In this document: piece after piece, positions 3,137-52,271 of the stretch
How positions within the stretch are numbered: position 1 is the first letter of the stretch
Layout of the letters: each line of letters starts with the position of its first letter
Virus record (IMG/VR): IMGVR_UViG_3300045303_000152
Coordinates: 45,753-109,752 of that record
Reading direction: 5' to 3' (one strand)
Source of the DNA: a virus
DNA length: 64,000 nucleotides
The notes under the pieces: generated by a model
The model's input: the letters and a program-made list of their open reading frames with translations, nothing else
Databases searched by the model: none
What the model was told of the DNA's origin: nothing
Translations under genes and position numbers: made by a program

Positions 3137-3206
3137 TGAACCGCGTTCATCTTGTAGCTACATTCTGAACCGCGTTCATCTTGCATATGCATCTGATCAG
3201 CGTTCA
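3137..3206. repeat. array of TGAACCGCGTTCA units (two exact, one degenerate), 28-29 bp period
   Basis: 3137-3149, 3166-3178, 3194-3206; spacers contain palindromes TGTAGCTACA and TGCATATGCA. Confidence 0.85.
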
Positions 3207-5187: not shown

Positions 5188-5502
5188 ATGCCCGCGACTG
5201 ACAACGCCTTGATGGCAAAGCCTCGTAATGTGGATGTTACCGATGCACGCACCCCGATGTGGATTGTACGCAAGATCGTACATCGCTTGGTGCTCGACTT
5301 CGGCAGCATCTACGTGGTTGATCAGATACAAGTGGCGATGGTTGGCAAGGCGTATGGGTTTATGGTCAGTTTCGAACTGACGCCCCAATCACCAAACGTG
5401 GAGTTGATGTTCAACGTGAGAATTGCGTACTTCGACTATGTTGGGGAGATCAAGTGGTGTTGCCTTACTACCAGAAATGAGGTAACTGGGAGGTGGCAGT
5501 AA
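5188..5502 (+). CDS. hypothetical protein
   Basis: GAGGGG RBS. Confidence 0.55.
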   Translation: MPATDNALMAKPRNVDVTDARTPMWIVRKIVHRLVLDFGSIYVVDQIQVAMVGKAYGFMVSFELTPQSPNVELMFNVRIAYFDYVGEIKWCCLTTRNEVTGRWQ

Positions 5503-5970
5503 TGTCAACACAATACGCCGTCATGCGGCGGAGGGAAGTGAATATGTGGTATGTTGAGATGTGCAATGGCAAACGTCACGGCCCATTCGAAAGCTATGAA
5601 GATGCTAACCAAATGGCTAGCGACGACGTAGCCAGAATATACCGGGTTCACAGCGTATCTCATCTACTGGCCTATGACAGAGCCATGCGCGAGCGGCGTG
5701 GCAAGCTGTCGCCCATAACGCTGCCAACGCCAGATCACCCGGCATTGCGGCGCCTGCTTGACGAGTAGTCGTTCTACCCCAATTACCCCTAGCTATTAAT
5801 GTAGATCTAGTACCATTAGCTGCCCTAGCTAGCACCCTAGCGCCCAAAATTGCTGAACGCTGTATATGCACTAATAGCTACCAGATTTCGACCGTAAATC
5901 GCGTATGTTTCGAGTACCGGCCAACGCCGAACCCTACAAACCAACGTCAACTTATGAAGAGGAACTAACC

Positions 5971-8759: not shown

Positions 8760-11079
8760 ATGAGCGAGCATCGAGACGTGCGTAGTGACGCTTATTGGCA
8801 GGAGTGGGCCGATAACTACAAGCCGACGCCAAGTGGTCCACAGCCAACCGCCACGGGTTATCTGCTGCTGGCGGCGTATGGTAAGGCTAAGCGGGCACTC
8901 ATTCGGCTGGTGTGCTTTGTGTACCAGCACGACATCGAGACTGAAGAGTGGGATGAAGTCAACTACAAGATCGAAAACATACCCTGGCACTGCCGGCGTT
9001 GCGGTGCTGGCGGCATAACCCGCTAAGGCTAAGCTTCAACACAATCAGGCAGTATGTAAACTCTAAGGAAGAGAGGGATCGAGCTATGGCTAAAACAACC
9101 CAAGTCTGCATCAATGAGAACTGCGTGTTCGTGTTTCAGACCAATCACGGCTCGCTAGTAGTGAGGTTCGAGAAGGTAGGCACCCGTGATACTATTTACA
9201 GCGTCGTGACCTATCAGGACAAAAACAATACAATCATCGGGCCGAACATCGGCTACGCGTTCAAGCCGAGAAACAGCAACGAGGCGTGAGCATATGTGGA
9301 TACACAAAGTAGAACGAATATTAAAGGAGGGAACTATGGATGTGCAAATCGAGGCGATGCGTTGTCAAGTATCGAACGTGTTCTACCCTCATTGGGCACT
9401 CAGAAGGGTAGCGCTTGATACTAGCAAGGACACCGGCAAGAGCATCATCGTGCATGAGCCGTTGGCTCGAATGACAGCAACGGCTGTAAGGAACAATAGC
9501 CTAGAAGCTTTTGTGAAGCTGGTACGACTGTCGCAAACACTAAAAGACATAAAGGAGTGAGTAGCATGGGGAAGAACAGACGTAAGCCAATCGAGCGCAA
9601 GCGGCTAGGCCCAGTCGGTGGGCGATACTCGACGCCGTTCTTGAACTATGGCGCGGGCGTTATGAAGGTAACGCCACGACCCATCGACATCAAGATACCT
9701 CGCCGCTTGCTGCTTGCCTTGCAAGTACGTGAGGATAGCAAAAAAGAATGGGGTAACCTGCGCGCGCATTCGATCAACCAGTACACACCCGAAAGCCAGA
9801 AAAACAAGCTAAGAAAGGAACTCGAGTACTTGCGTGAGGGTTGGATGGTGAATGCCTACTTCGGTAGCAATGCATCATTCAGAATTCACGAGGTTTACAC
9901 CCGGCCCGAGGCAGCCACCTACTAAGGAACATGAATATCATGACAAAGAAAGCAAAGAAAAAGCTCAACGGCGTTCACGTGCAAGTCGCAGCGGAGCCAA
10001 TCGAAGCACCTCAATACCTGGGGCACAAGCCGCGCATGGGTAAAGGCAATAAGATCGCCTTGGCCCGAGCAATAGCAGCAGCACGCAACGCCGCTCGCAA
10101 GAGCAACTTGTTCGACGGCATCAGGGGGCACGGCATCGTGATACTCATAGATGCTGCATTGCAGGATGCATTCTTACCCAAGGGCAAGATCGAGGTGCGC
10201 CGCGAGGGGGATCGCTTACAACAAGCATTGAAGCTAGTGAGAGACAGCCAGCGCATGCAGCAGGCACCGCCAGGATTGCTAACCTAATGGAGCCAGAAAT
10301 GAAACACAAGCTAAAGCCCAAGGCTAAACCTAAGCTTGAGGAGTACATATACGCAATCGCAAATCCAGTCACCGGCATGGAGTTGGTGCGCTCGACCTGG
10401 GCGTACTCACTGCAGGAAGCTACTCGCCAAACTGAGAATATTGCTCGGTGCTTTGGCAAGTCAACAGAAGTTGTTCATGTTGAGAGGGCCTGATGATTAG
10501 AATAACACTGCCCCCTTATCCAGAAGTGATCCACATCATGGGCACGCACGGCCTACAATCGCTGACCACTGATAGATTTGCATACCTAGAGAGGGAGTAC
10601 AAGCAACATCTAGCCTTGCTGGTCAGCATGCAATACCACGGCAAGTTCACCGCAGATCAAATAACGGGCATGGTCTTTATCATAGGACTAATGCTGCAAG
10701 CACCCGATGGAGGTAACTGATGGCAACGTACAAACAATTCCCACACTGTCACGCATTCGCAGCCGGGCATGCTGCTGAGAACAGCATACCGCACGACGCC
10801 TTTCATCGCCTAAGGGACTGTGAGGTGTTGCAGACTGAAATCAACCTTTGGAATAGGACTGAAACCGTACTCGCTGCGCTGAAGCTAGATACTCCTGGTG
10901 GCAAAATTTCAGAGCGGCAAGCTGCACTGTTTCAGCTCGGCTATACCCAAGCAATGGGTACGGATGAAATTGCCGATGCCGCTGACGATACCGAGCGCGA
11001 CAAGCTTGAGAAGGAGTACGACCAAAAGCTGGGCCTCGACGACCCGACTATCAGAGAGTTTGTGATTTCGCTGTACTGA
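8760..11079 (+). other. run of small hypothetical CDSs (8760-9026, ~9086-9289, 9294-9560, 9557-9925, 9931-10287, 10287-10493, 10493-10720, 10720-11079)
   Basis: Tightly abutting + strand ORFs with RBSs; no recognised family. Confidence 0.6.
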
Positions 11080-17076: not shown

Positions 17077-17148
17077 CATTTGGAAAATGGATGGGGTAGG
17101 CTCAGTATGTATAGTACGAGCCTACCCTAACCTTTTGGAGCTTACAAC

Positions 17149-31766: not shown

Positions 31767-32378
31767 GTGACCTATACGCCATATCTCGACCAAGGACTAG
31801 AACGATGGCTGTTCACGACCGCTCGCCGTAATCTTTGGCGGGTGCCTCAATGGTACAGCGTGGATGACTTAGTGCAGGATGGCTACGCCAGCTTCTACAA
31901 ATGTGCCAAGCACTATGGCCGGCTGGCTCGCAAGCGCAAGCCTAAGAAGGATGATCGGCGCAACTTCATGGCGCTGGTCAAGCGCACGTTCGAAAACCAT
32001 ATCCATGACCTGTCGACCAAGTCTACCATTCAGCGGGTCGAAAAGCCGGTGTCGCAACTGCATCGGCCAGAAATATCGGCTGACGATTGGCTCGAACGTC
32101 ACGCCAGCGTAGTAGAAGAAAGTATGGCTGACATAACTATCGTCCTTCAGCAAGCACCGCGAGAAATCAAGCAGGCGATTGCCATACTGGTCGGCGATGT
32201 TGTGGACGTCAAATACCTACGCACTAGCAAGAAAAATACGAAGCTCGTTAATAGGGAGACAACCAATGAGTACCTGTGCCGGCGTCTGATCGCGTTTGGG
32301 CACAATTTCGATCCGAAAAAGGTTGACATGATCGAACAGGTTAGGCACTATTTCGGAGTGCAAGCTACCGCAACGTGA
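31767..32378 (+). CDS. sigma-factor-like protein (region 2)
   Basis: 'VDDLVQDGYASFYKCAKHY...F...VKRTFENHIHDL'. Confidence 0.65.
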   Translation: MTYTPYLDQGLERWLFTTARRNLWRVPQWYSVDDLVQDGYASFYKCAKHYGRLARKRKPKKDDRRNFMALVKRTFENHIHDLSTKSTIQRVEKPVSQLHRPEISADDWLERHASVVEESMADITIVLQQAPREIKQAIAILVGDVVDVKYLRTSKKNTKLVNRETTNEYLCRRLIAFGHNFDPKKVDMIEQVRHYFGVQATAT

Positions 32379-45669: not shown

Positions 45670-46227
45670 ATGCAGCAACGCCCCGATAAGACCCCGAGCA
45701 AAAACCCCCAAGCGGCCGACTATCGCGAATTGCTGGTGATCGACCGCGACGATCTGGAAGGCTGCCTCACCGACCACTCTGACAACTTTTTCTACATCGC
45801 CGACGCCCACGTGCGGGCGGTCGCCAAGCGCGATGCCCTCAAGCTCGAGATCGAAGAGTTGCATGCCGCCCTCGATAGAAACATCCGTGAACAGGCCGCT
45901 AAGAACGAGGAGAAAACAACCGAGGCTGGCATTCAGCAAAAGATCAAAGACGACCCCGACATGCGCGACCTGAAGCAACAGCTTTTGAACGCCAGCCAGA
46001 AGGCCGATGAGTGGGGCGCCCTGAAGGAAGCCTTTTATCAGCGCGGCTACATGCTGCGTGAGCTTGTGGCGATAACGCTCAAGAAACTTTCAATGGAAGG
46101 AGAGATCAGCTCGACCGAACGTGCAACCAACGAATTGCGAGCGAAGCAGGGCGACCGCGCCATCGAGCGGGTGAGAACTGCCCGCGAAACGATGCCCATG
46201 AAGCGACTTGGCAAAAAGAGCAAGTAG
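45670..46227 (+). CDS. UvsY-like recombination mediator
   Basis: Helical 'K.TEA.I...I..DP' and 'AF.QRG.ML' pattern; lies near SSB and RecA. Confidence 0.55.
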   Translation: MQQRPDKTPSKNPQAADYRELLVIDRDDLEGCLTDHSDNFFYIADAHVRAVAKRDALKLEIEELHAALDRNIREQAAKNEEKTTEAGIQQKIKDDPDMRDLKQQLLNASQKADEWGALKEAFYQRGYMLRELVAITLKKLSMEGEISSTERATNELRAKQGDRAIERVRTARETMPMKRLGKKSK

Positions 46228-47914: not shown

Positions 47915-47950
47915 GGTTTCCTGGCCTCTCGTGCAGTGTAGGTCAGGAGG

Positions 47951-48003
47951 CGGGTGGCGTAAGGCTTCAGCTCCATTGAGCCTTGCGTCACCCGTCACTT
48001 TTT
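47951..48003 (+). terminator. intrinsic terminator
   Basis: CGGGTGGCGTAAGGCT...AGCCTTGCGTCACCCG followed by a T-run. Confidence 0.7.
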
Positions 48004-49998: not shown

Positions 49999-50631
49999 AT
50001 GCATATATCAGCTAAGGAAATTTGGCGTGCTGTACCTGGATTGCCTTACTATTATCAAGTAAGCAACCGTGGACGCATGCGTTCTTTGGCTCGCAAAGAT
50101 AAACGTGGTTGGAATATAAAAACTCGTTATATGGTTGCTCGTGATAGATTCTTAATAACTAATGAAGGAAATAAAATTTGGTGCCCTTTTGCTGCATTAG
50201 TACTAAAAGCGTTTGTAGGTCCTCCACCTGATGATTGCTACTTATCTAGGCACCTAGACGATGATCGCTCAAACAATAAAGTAAGTAACCTTGCTTGGGG
50301 GACAGATGCTGATAATAGTAAAGATGCTATAAGAAATGGACGCAGCTTTGCATCTTATGGTCATTTAGGAAAAAAGCATTCTCTAAAGACTAAAAAATTA
50401 CTAAGCGATAAGTTTAAGGGCAGGCCAACTGGTAGAAAAATATCACCTTCCCATAGAAAAGCTTTACTTAAAGGATATAGAATTAAATTTCCAGAAAAAC
50501 CTGTAATCCTTTGTTTATGTGGTTGTGGAGAAGTAACACGCCCAGGTAAAAAATTTAGACATGGTCACTCAGGTAGAATTAGATTTCGCCAAATAAACAA
50601 AGATAGAATAGGAAAGGCAAGAACATGGTGA
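49999..50631 (+). CDS. NUMOD4-HNH homing endonuclease with NUMOD3-like tail
   Basis: 'EIWRAVPG..YQVSNRGR.RS', 'RHLDD...NN.VSNLAWGT..DN', 'GKKHS.KTK'; AT-rich. Confidence 0.9.
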   Translation: MHISAKEIWRAVPGLPYYYQVSNRGRMRSLARKDKRGWNIKTRYMVARDRFLITNEGNKIWCPFAALVLKAFVGPPPDDCYLSRHLDDDRSNNKVSNLAWGTDADNSKDAIRNGRSFASYGHLGKKHSLKTKKLLSDKFKGRPTGRKISPSHRKALLKGYRIKFPEKPVILCLCGCGEVTRPGKKFRHGHSGRIRFRQINKDRIGKARTW

Positions 50632-51167
50632 ACAGTAAAAGAAAAGGTGGAGCTTTCGAACGGGAAATATGCCGCTTGCTGTCGCTTTGGGTATCACACG
50701 GCAAGCAGGAAGATTTGTATTGGCGGTCGGCAATGAGCGGCGGTCGCGCTACTGTTGGCAAGCGGCGAGGGATTGATCTCGTTGCGCAGGCTGGAGATAT
50801 CAGTAGCGTACACAAAGCTGGCCACGTGCTCACCACTGAGTTCTACTTCGAAACCAAACACGTGAAGGAATTGCACTTAGACAATTTCATGGTGAAGGGT
50901 ACTGGCCAGCTCGCCACGTTTTGGGAAACCGCAGCTCAGGAAGCCTCCAGCTACCATAAGGCGCCGGTCATCATCGCTCGGCAAAATCATTTCCCTACCT
51001 TGTGGATCAGTGAGGATGGCATCGTTGACATGTTGCACGGCAGGGCGATCAAGCGGCGATGGCCAAAAGGCAAGCTCGCGCTTATCCGCGTAGCGGGTAC
51101 AGCCCTAGCTATATGGAACTTTGATTTGCTGCTCGCCACGCCGTTCAAGTATAGCGGCTTAAACTAG
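50625..51167 (+). CDS. Holliday junction resolvase (PD-(D/E)XK type)
   Basis: 'KGGAFERE', 'SGG', 'AGDI', 'FETK'. Confidence 0.8.
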   Translation: MVNSKRKGGAFEREICRLLSLWVSHGKQEDLYWRSAMSGGRATVGKRRGIDLVAQAGDISSVHKAGHVLTTEFYFETKHVKELHLDNFMVKGTGQLATFWETAAQEASSYHKAPVIIARQNHFPTLWISEDGIVDMLHGRAIKRRWPKGKLALIRVAGTALAIWNFDLLLATPFKYSGLN

Positions 51168-51190
51168 AGCCCCGTATGTTATGATTAGCC

Positions 51191-51277
51191 CGCATGCAGC
51201 TGCCTCCCCCGTCGGCCTCATGCGTGGCAGGCACGGGCCGACCCCCGCCCCAAGGAAGTCGGCCCGTGCCACTTTTA
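51191..51277 (+). ncRNA. candidate sRNA with two C-rich loops
   Basis: TG-n-TATGAT -10 at 51177-51185; hairpin with CCTCCCCCGT loop; perfect 13-bp hairpin followed by TTTT. Confidence 0.55.
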
Positions 51278-51458
51278 CCTGCAACCTGAGTAGCTACAAC
51301 CCGCCCCGGCGCCGTACCTAACCCCATGCCGCGCGAGCCTCGCCATTGCCCCCTAATCGTGGCGCCCGTAAGCACGAGCGACCCGCCCGCTAGGGTGCTG
51401 AGGGTAGGCAAACTGAACGCGGTTCAGGTGTCATAGCAACCTAGTACGAGGTAGCGCC

Positions 51459-52271
51459 ATGCTAGAGACAATGACCAAGCAGTCAGATTTAACTGATATG
51501 AAGTTTGGTAAGTGGATCGTGCTTGCTAGAGCAGCCAATCATGGTAAGGGTCAATTTTGGAAGTGTAGGTGTGGTGGCTGCAAGAAAACCTATAAGATCT
51601 ATTGGTCTAACTTGGTAAAAGGCAAGACTAGTCAATGCCGTCACTGTGCAAATAAGAGTAGTAGGCATGTACCTAGTGAGTATAGATCTAATTCTATTAG
51701 TAACCTTACAGGGCAGTCGTTTGATAATTGGGAAGTTCTATCGCTAACGAAGAGATTTAGCAGCTACTGTTGGATTTGTAGGTGTAAAATTTGTGGACAT
51801 CAAAAACAATTTCCCACTAGTTGGCTTACAAGAAAGAATACAAAAGGTTACGCGCGATTAGATTGCTATCGTTGCATAAAGAAGAAACAGCCAAAAGCTC
51901 TAACTGAAAAGCTCACAGAAATAACTCCAGTTAAAAAGCTTAGAACTATATATCGTAGAGAACGAATAAGCATCGCTGGAAGGTGGTGTGTTTACTGCGG
52001 TGAGTTAGCAACTACTAGGGAACATTACCCACCCAGAACCTCTACTAGAGGAGGATTTATTTTGCCTTGTTGTTTGCTCTGTAACGTTACGATCGGTGCT
52101 CGCTGGCCTTTCTCTTTTACGCGGCGAACAGCCGAAGTGCAATTAAAACGAAAGATAGCCTATCCTTGGTGCCCTATTACTTACTTGAGATTATTAGGCT
52201 TGAGTTATGATATTCTTGATCGTTTGATAAATCCTTGGATACCAGTATCGCTAACAACACTGGGAGACTGA
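51459..52271 (+). CDS. probable homing endonuclease (repeated zinc-ribbon domains plus HNH-like C-terminus)
   Basis: Two 'L.G..F..W.VL...W.C.C..C' repeats; 'CVYCG...REH.PP...PCC..CN'. Confidence 0.7.
   Translation: MLETMTKQSDLTDMKFGKWIVLARAANHGKGQFWKCRCGGCKKTYKIYWSNLVKGKTSQCRHCANKSSRHVPSEYRSNSISNLTGQSFDNWEVLSLTKRFSSYCWICRCKICGHQKQFPTSWLTRKNTKGYARLDCYRCIKKKQPKALTEKLTEITPVKKLRTIYRRERISIAGRWCVYCGELATTREHYPPRTSTRGGFILPCCLLCNVTIGARWPFSFTRRTAEVQLKRKIAYPWCPITYLRLLGLSYDILDRLINPWIPVSLTTLGD

Follow-up and report, generated by a model that had tools for sequence, protein, structure and literature searches.

A two-hairpin RNA element between the recombination and replication genes of an uncultured soil phage

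What is the role of two stable hairpins with C-rich loops that lie between two blocks of phage genes? The element in question sits in a 109,752-bp IMG/VR phage contig from soil (completeness estimate 85%), whose last 64 kb make up the window of 64,000 nt analysed here and numbered from its first letter. To our knowledge, the phage group consists of uncultured 110-kb soil phages with heavily modified DNA. The best cultured-phage matches of the DNA polymerase, in Edwardsiella and Vibrio phages, reach 31% identity, and blastn of the region against a collection of cultured phages gave no match; no cultured phage appears to be close to this one. A sequence-only reading of the locus had proposed that the hairpins form a small RNA whose C-rich loops shut off the leader genes of the phage through their G-rich ribosome sites, in the manner of alphaproteobacterial sRNAs. 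With a polymerase match of only 31%, the alphaproteobacterial host in this proposal is an assumption.

The element occupies a 291-nt gap between a PDDEXK endonuclease gene and a 270-aa ORF. On its 5' side lies a recombination block of gp32-like, recA-like and PDDEXK endonuclease genes, together with an HNH/NUMOD4 gene. The final gene of this recA-like block (50625..51167, plus strand), previously called a resolvase, encodes a PDDEXK_15 / RusA-like endonuclease (Pfam PF24608, E 4.7e-13; PHROG 244, E 2.7e-13). On the 3' side lies a replication block comprising a 176-aa gene, a DnaB-like helicase and an SNF2-type helicase. The intervening 270-aa ORF (51459..52271, plus strand) is HNH-endonuclease-like (PHROG 374, E 4.4e-15) and is found in the window genome only: three relatives (L002, L003 and L042) and the contigs of four other runs lack it, and the sequence of each departs from the window genome at 51396. 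In these relatives, the leader runs directly to the 176-aa gene that precedes the DnaB-like helicase. The HNH/NUMOD4 gene (49999-50631) and the HNH-like ORF flank the PDDEXK gene in the window genome alone; in L002, L042 and the other runs their stretches, where local GC falls to 46%, either cannot be aligned or are missing. Both appear to be free-standing homing-endonuclease-like insertions.

The two-hairpin structure is real. Every sequence feature described in the sequence-only reading is present where it had been placed, and the two adjacent hairpins fold far better than shuffled sequence: the whole element reaches -53.8 kcal/mol (z -5.0 against shuffles), and with the hairpins folded singly none of 200 shuffles was equally stable. 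Hairpin 1 (51188..51228, plus strand; -20.3 kcal/mol and z -3.5 on its own) begins 21 nt past the endonuclease stop codon and consists of a 9-bp outer stem with one bulge, a small internal loop and a 4-bp inner stem. Its apical loop, CCUCCCCCGU (51203-51212), is 70% C and contains the anti-SD core CCUCC. The terminator-like hairpin 2 (51230..51276, plus strand; -33.9 kcal/mol and z -6.8 on its own) starts 63 nt past the endonuclease stop at 51167 and has a perfect, GC-rich stem of 13 bp (51230-42 with 51258-70) under a 15-nt loop, CCCCGCCCCAAGGAA, that is 53% C; AC and then UUUU (51273-76) follow directly 3' of the stem. Upstream of the pair, GTATGT at 51174-51179 overlaps an extended -10-like sequence, TGTTATGAT, at 51177-51185. 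The sRNA-like anatomy described earlier, with a plus-strand RNA structure, a promoter-like motif in front and a hairpin with UUUU at the end, stands, unlike the silencing of leader genes attributed to it. For an alternative anti-terminator pairing between the two hairpins, inspection by eye turned up only a 5-bp option.

The element is carried by close relatives only, namely a 71-kb contig (G001 / L002), a 20-kb contig (L003) and a 2.5-kb metagenome contig (L042), all with ~93% nucleotide identity in the flanking gene. Contigs of four further soil and rhizosphere runs hold only the two alternative haplotypes already seen, and a more divergent variant in one of them (X3) does not extend over the hairpins. 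All 13 sequencing runs listed for a 5-kb stretch with the element are recorded as DNA. The structure comparison covers three known haplotypes in relatives that are ~93% identical, a range in which conservation alone is weak evidence. Hairpin 2 shows five stem differences between haplotypes, every one of which keeps the pairing; they comprise compensatory changes from A-U to G-C and from G-C to C-G, with two further pairs becoming G-U. All 78 of its 78 pair cells (100%) are standard pairs, against 28-41% with the partners slid. On the minus strand, these G-U pairs would turn into A-C mismatches, so the structure under selection is that of the plus-strand RNA; a minus-strand RNA, which would also have no T-run after the hairpin, was rejected on these grounds. 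In hairpin 1, both stems and the apical loop are invariant in the three haplotypes, and the changes (at 51197-98, and a 1-nt deletion at 51216) are confined to the internal loop. The loop of hairpin 2 behaves differently in its two parts: the 5' half reads CCCCCG in the window genome and CCCTTA in the relatives, and AAGGAA is kept. One-nucleotide indels separate the haplotypes at 51216 and 51247, so the element is probably non-coding on either strand; coding readings of 46 codons on the plus strand and 60-88 codons on the minus strand were rejected for the same reason.

Beyond these relatives, the searches returned nothing comparable. The exact 17-mer of loop 1 has four matches in IMG/VR besides the two known relatives, all unrelated and all in high-GC coding sequence. 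Distant PDDEXK loci on viral and metagenome contigs (39-56% identity) have another gene directly 3' and nothing like the element, and a search of 34 sources and of the remaining genome with a covariance model of the element brought up no additional copy.

The motif in front of the hairpins is better represented. CGTATGT emerged from a k-mer count over intergenic regions, and the copy that overlaps TGTTATGAT (51173..51185, plus strand) is one instance of a recurrent promoter-like motif. In the window, 10 of its 11 copies are on the plus strand and one is on the minus strand. Copies of CGTATGT(T/A), a strand-biased junction motif, stand at 5902, 16071, 23206, 24988, 32696, 45621, 51173 and 59195, with GTATGT at 9052 and 14153 and the minus-strand copy at genome position -943. 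Seven plus-strand copies are intergenic or at gene ends; the motif lies mostly at gene junctions, with a typical spacing of 26-70 nt 5' of an SD-led start codon. The 71-kb relative has a plus:minus ratio of 12:1, and orthologous sites are kept there even where the flanks have diverged. CGTATGT supplies the TG of an extended -10-like TGnTAnnAn, and no conserved -35 element was found alongside its copies. From its letters and placement, CGTATGT may be a promoter element and would then be a candidate promoter class of the phage's DNA-metabolism genes; given the lack of a conserved -35 element, it could instead be an RNA-level signal. One copy in the 71-kb relative precedes a U-tract hairpin by 3 nt, and one of those in the window lies within a hairpin loop. 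The copy at 51173 is exceptional in that two hairpins come next instead of a ribosome site, and in relatives without the HNH insertion it is followed by ~290 nt with no credible ORF. Several copies of the motif are followed by a C/A-rich stretch, such as AACCCCCAA. A separate observation concerns a 185-aa ORF (45670-46227, plus strand) with a CGTATGT copy 48 nt in front of it: its 5' UTR is C-rich (…GCACCCCCATG), and it has no visible Shine-Dalgarno sequence and no Pfam match.

Hairpin 2 is a stable GC-rich stem-loop on the transcribed strand, 3' of a stop codon on the same strand. Its U-tract has only four U after a 2-nt spacer, and it was not among the calls of a consensus terminator scan. 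When the phage was searched for strong hairpins, the same design, a hairpin followed by AC(C)UUUU, came up twice more: at 47949-47996, followed by ACUUUUU, and at 17092-17129, followed by ACCUUUU and then directly by the next ribosome site. The former belongs to a second double hairpin (47915-47996; z -7.1), which ends in ACUUUUU, lies right after the gp32-like gene and directly 5' of the recA-like ribosome site, and has no CGTATGT motif. This double hairpin is kept in the 71-kb relative, where one inner-stem C-G pair is lost by a paired deletion. The hairpins at 47949-47996 and 17092-17129 must be leaky, because the next genes follow with no room for a promoter; both resemble terminators that a good part of the polymerases pass, or stabilisers of 3' ends, inside a long array of plus-strand genes. 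Across the 110-kb contig (estimated 85% complete), the Q-type antiterminator families PF06530 and PF03589 had no match at E up to 0.1, and no antiterminator or other factor regulating read-through was found.

Downstream of hairpin 2, the spacer at 51277..51405 (plus strand) is non-coding, conserved and unstructured, its folding being no better than that of shuffles (z +0.8). Its identity to the relatives is 76-98% per 50-nt bin. It is 41% C, compared with a mean of 24% for the other plus-strand intergenic regions, and the intergenic region as a whole is the most C-rich of the phage. Since the C-richness runs ~130 nt past the hairpins, it is a property of the whole leader and not of the two loops alone. 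The leader also contains an operator-like palindrome of 13 bp, TGAAC-N3-GTTCA (51414..51426), 32 nt 5' of the start codon at 51459. Exact copies of this palindrome occur at 3137-3149, 3166-3178 and 51414-51426, and a one-mismatch copy at 3194-3206; in the early control region, the two exact copies stand in tandem at a distance of 29 bp, and the third is degenerate. The copy near the 51459 start is inverted, and its arms are kept in the 71-kb relative. TGAAC-N3-GTTCA looks like the operator of one DNA-binding regulator.

We consider a cis-acting boundary module the most likely reading of the element, and we put at about even the chance that its main role is that of an operon-boundary terminator and leader attenuator. 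As a plus-strand RNA module, it would mark the boundary between the recombination block and the replication block. Together with its short U-tract, hairpin 2 would serve as a leaky intrinsic terminator and 3'-end stabiliser for transcripts that come in from the 5' side. CGTATGT with TGTTATGAT, 7 nt past the stop codon, would be one of about eleven promoter-like copies in the phage, and transcripts starting at ~51188-51194 would begin with hairpin 1 and reach hairpin 2 within ~85 nt; the module would therefore also act as a promoter-proximal attenuator. The leader attenuated in this way would be unusually long (~290 nt), C-rich and untranslated, and would end in the operator-like palindrome. 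The analysis shows the folded structure, its conservation as plus-strand RNA, a motif that recurs with a strand bias and further hairpins of the same type; from these we infer that the motif is a promoter, that hairpin 2 terminates transcription and that the element works mainly in cis. A two-hairpin RNA of ~85 nt is an expected by-product of such a module. A transcript of this length, running from the motif at 51174 to hairpin 2, is plausible because CGTATGT is recurrent, strand-biased and kept in a relative, and a short RNA from the element seems a reasonable expectation. Against a purely cis role, the invariant loop CCUCCCCCGU of hairpin 1 is left without an explanation.

A trans-acting RNA is an alternative that we regard as unlikely but not negligible: an sRNA of ~85 nt, made from a CGTATGT promoter and ended by hairpin 2, whose C-rich loops (CCUCCCCCGU and CCCC..CCCC) pair with G-rich ribosome sites of phage or host and block translation. 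The two adjacent hairpins with C-rich apical loops, the anti-SD core in loop 1, the invariance of that loop while the stem of hairpin 2 changes with compensation, the placement of the promoter-like motif for a start at the base of hairpin 1, the C-richness of the intergenic region and the precedent of the 6C and cuckoo RNAs (PMC6486639, PMC4615179) all speak for it. However, no target stands out, since hundreds of windows pair equally well or better; the 5' half of loop 2 is not conserved; the C-richness reaches 130 nt beyond the hairpins and is not specific to the loops; no Rfam family was reached, the best being ErsA; and the element is seen only in near-identical relatives. Overall, we give a trans-acting sRNA of the 6C or cuckoo type a low probability. 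In one such version, which we also hold to be rather improbable, an RNA of ~85 nt would be made by a virulent-type phage from its own middle-class promoter, and its anti-SD-like loops would titrate G-rich sites of the phage's own early genes or of host genes. If true, the phage would carry its own functional counterpart of the 6C and cuckoo sRNAs, one that sets the timing of the change from early expression to replication.

The most specific form of a trans role is the one originally proposed, in which the sRNA silences the leader genes (starts at 364, 2447 and others) through GGGGG ribosome sites. Its sequence basis checks out: CGACGGGGG occurs exactly at 346-354 and 2433-2441, with its complement at 51206-51214, CGGGGGT is present at 2436 and 31755, and GGGG(G)TT-type sites were confirmed at four leader starts. 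However, when the 89-nt element was shuffled with dinucleotides preserved (n=2000), 52% of the shuffles matched one or more of 170 start regions with an exact complement of at least 9 nt, and 10% matched two or more, so the 9-nt match to the leader is at chance level as a signal of targeting. The 364 and 2447 sites are moreover not independent, because both carry the longer repeat ATCGACGGGGGTT. By duplex energy, the start regions of 2447 and 364 rank only 11th and 16th among 178, and each is matched or beaten by ~2% of all 30-nt genome windows, which makes hundreds of windows with pairing at least as good as that of the proposed sites. Stems also take up some of the bases of both claimed seeds: 51213-14 of the 9-mer fall in the inner stem of hairpin 1, and the GAC of the second seed falls in the stem of hairpin 2.

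The relatives argue in the same direction. The 71-kb relative covers the leader and has no forward CGACGGGGG; at its leader sites, AAACGGGGGTTT and ATCAACGGGGTTT, only 7 and 6 bases are still complementary although loop 1 is unchanged, and the conserved part of the sites is the G-run of the ribosome site itself. The second seed (51240-47) fares no better, having changed from GACCCCCG to GACCCTTA in relatives. GGGGG(T) ribosome sites also occur 5' of the genes at 5188, 8428, 31767 and 35325 and of several minus-strand structural genes, and they do not appear to define a class confined to the leader. The proposed silencing mechanism is not supported, its base-pairing being no better than chance, and the lesson is a general one: in a C-rich RNA, an exact 9-nt complement to a ribosome site is no evidence of targeting. 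As a side observation, the gene at 31767-32378, previously called sigma-like, is no more than a putative sigma factor: it matches Sigma70_r2 only below threshold (17.3 bits, cut-off 24), and its PHROG is one of unknown function. A strong leader hairpin at 2351-2389 (-27.2 kcal/mol), 45 nt 5' of the GGGGG ribosome site of the 2447 gene, keeps its pairing in the 71-kb relative through two compensatory pair changes.

Alternatively, there may be no independent transcript at all, the hairpins simply serving the endonuclease gene as 3' UTR and terminator, with CGTATGT not a promoter but, for example, an RNA-processing or protein-binding signal at gene junctions. We judge this somewhat less probable than a trans-acting RNA. 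It would account for the position of hairpin 1 only 21 nt past the stop codon, for the equivalent double hairpin at 47915-47996 that does without the motif, for the copies of CGTATGT found 3 nt before a U-tract hairpin in the 71-kb relative and inside a hairpin loop in the window, and for the lack of a -35 element. It sits less well with the overlap between the motif and a good extended -10 (TGnTATGAT), and with the promoter-like distances from start codons at which other CGTATGT copies are found.

A further group of roles seems improbable: an RNA that binds protein or acts as a decoy, a site that works at the DNA level close to the replication genes, or a 46-codon ORF at 51181-51321. AAGGAA(G) of loop 2 is conserved while the 5' half varies, there are many minus-strand G-runs beside the helicase genes, and the ORF is still open in relatives despite two indels; but the G-U pairs favour RNA over DNA, and the ORF has no ribosome site, a 10-codon stretch that is frameshifted between haplotypes, and sequence changes most of which alter the residue. 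The silencing of leader genes by an sRNA comes last and is very hard to credit, given that its two exact 9-nt matches are of a kind that chance supplies, that they are lost in a relative that retains the loop, and that GGGGG sites are found well beyond the leader.

Returning to the cis-acting boundary module as the preferred reading, we regard the element as an ordinary-to-moderately interesting regulatory element. Its value lies in marking an operon boundary and in helping to define a recurrent CGTATGT motif and an end signal made of a hairpin and AC(C)UUUU. Should the short RNA exist and act in trans, it would be one of few phage-encoded, anti-SD-like regulators with C-rich loops, and it would offer a handle on temporal control in uncultured 110-kb soil phages.

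Among known systems, the closest in appearance are bacterial sRNAs that pair through C-rich loops, such as the 6C, cuckoo/CcsR and RsaE-like RNAs. The C-rich loops of the 6C sRNA of Actinobacteria bind G-rich ribosome sites, such as the AGGGGGG of panD and that of dnaB, and they do so without a chaperone (PMC6486639). This is the mode of action that the sequence-only reading had in effect described, and the element resembles 6C in its adjacent hairpins with C-rich, single-stranded apical loops. Unlike 6C, it is phage-borne, has just two hairpins and no supported target, complementarity to targets being neither above chance nor conserved, and does not match the 6C covariance model at E up to 10. 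The cuckoo RNAs of Alphaproteobacteria, which include CcsR (RSs0680), have 2-4 hairpins side by side, with CCUCCUCCC in the loops (PMC4615179). The element is like them in its neighbouring hairpins, in a conserved loop motif of the anti-SD kind and in stems that vary with compensation, but CCUCCUCCC is absent here, loop 1 being CCUCCCCCGU and loop 2 different again, and there is no Rfam match. Over the whole window, no Rfam family reached its gathering score, and models of the 6C and cuckoo type were absent at E up to 10. The best sub-threshold alignment was to ErsA / Pseudomon-1 (RF01719), with a UAUGUU-containing 5' part, one hairpin and, after it, a terminator hairpin whose loop is C-rich and whose tail reads UUUU..CCUG; its 24.3 bits, against a gathering score of 50, and an E of 0.01 that is valid only for a 381-nt search do not amount to membership.

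For the cis-acting boundary module, the parallels lie among phages. In T7-type junctions with RNase III sites, a stable hairpin comes soon after a recurrent promoter motif at gene junctions and sets the ends of the mRNAs. The element differs in that hairpin 2 has a U-tract like that of an intrinsic terminator, and neither a phage RNA polymerase nor RNase III cleavage is evidenced here; the recurrent, putative promoter motif at junctions and the stable hairpin close behind it are alike. In the lambdoid pR'-tR' arrangement, which gives rise to the '6S' RNA, an intrinsic terminator lies only ~100-200 nt behind the promoter and in front of a gene block, and a short RNA is made unless termination is overcome. 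The soil phage departs from it in the kind of promoter motif, in the lack of any Q-like antiterminator domain found in the 110-kb contig and in the genes that lie 3' of the element, which are replication genes and not late genes. Even so, the arrangement of CGTATGT and the two hairpins recalls the layout of pR'-tR', with a terminator close behind a promoter, as it does that of T7-type junctions.
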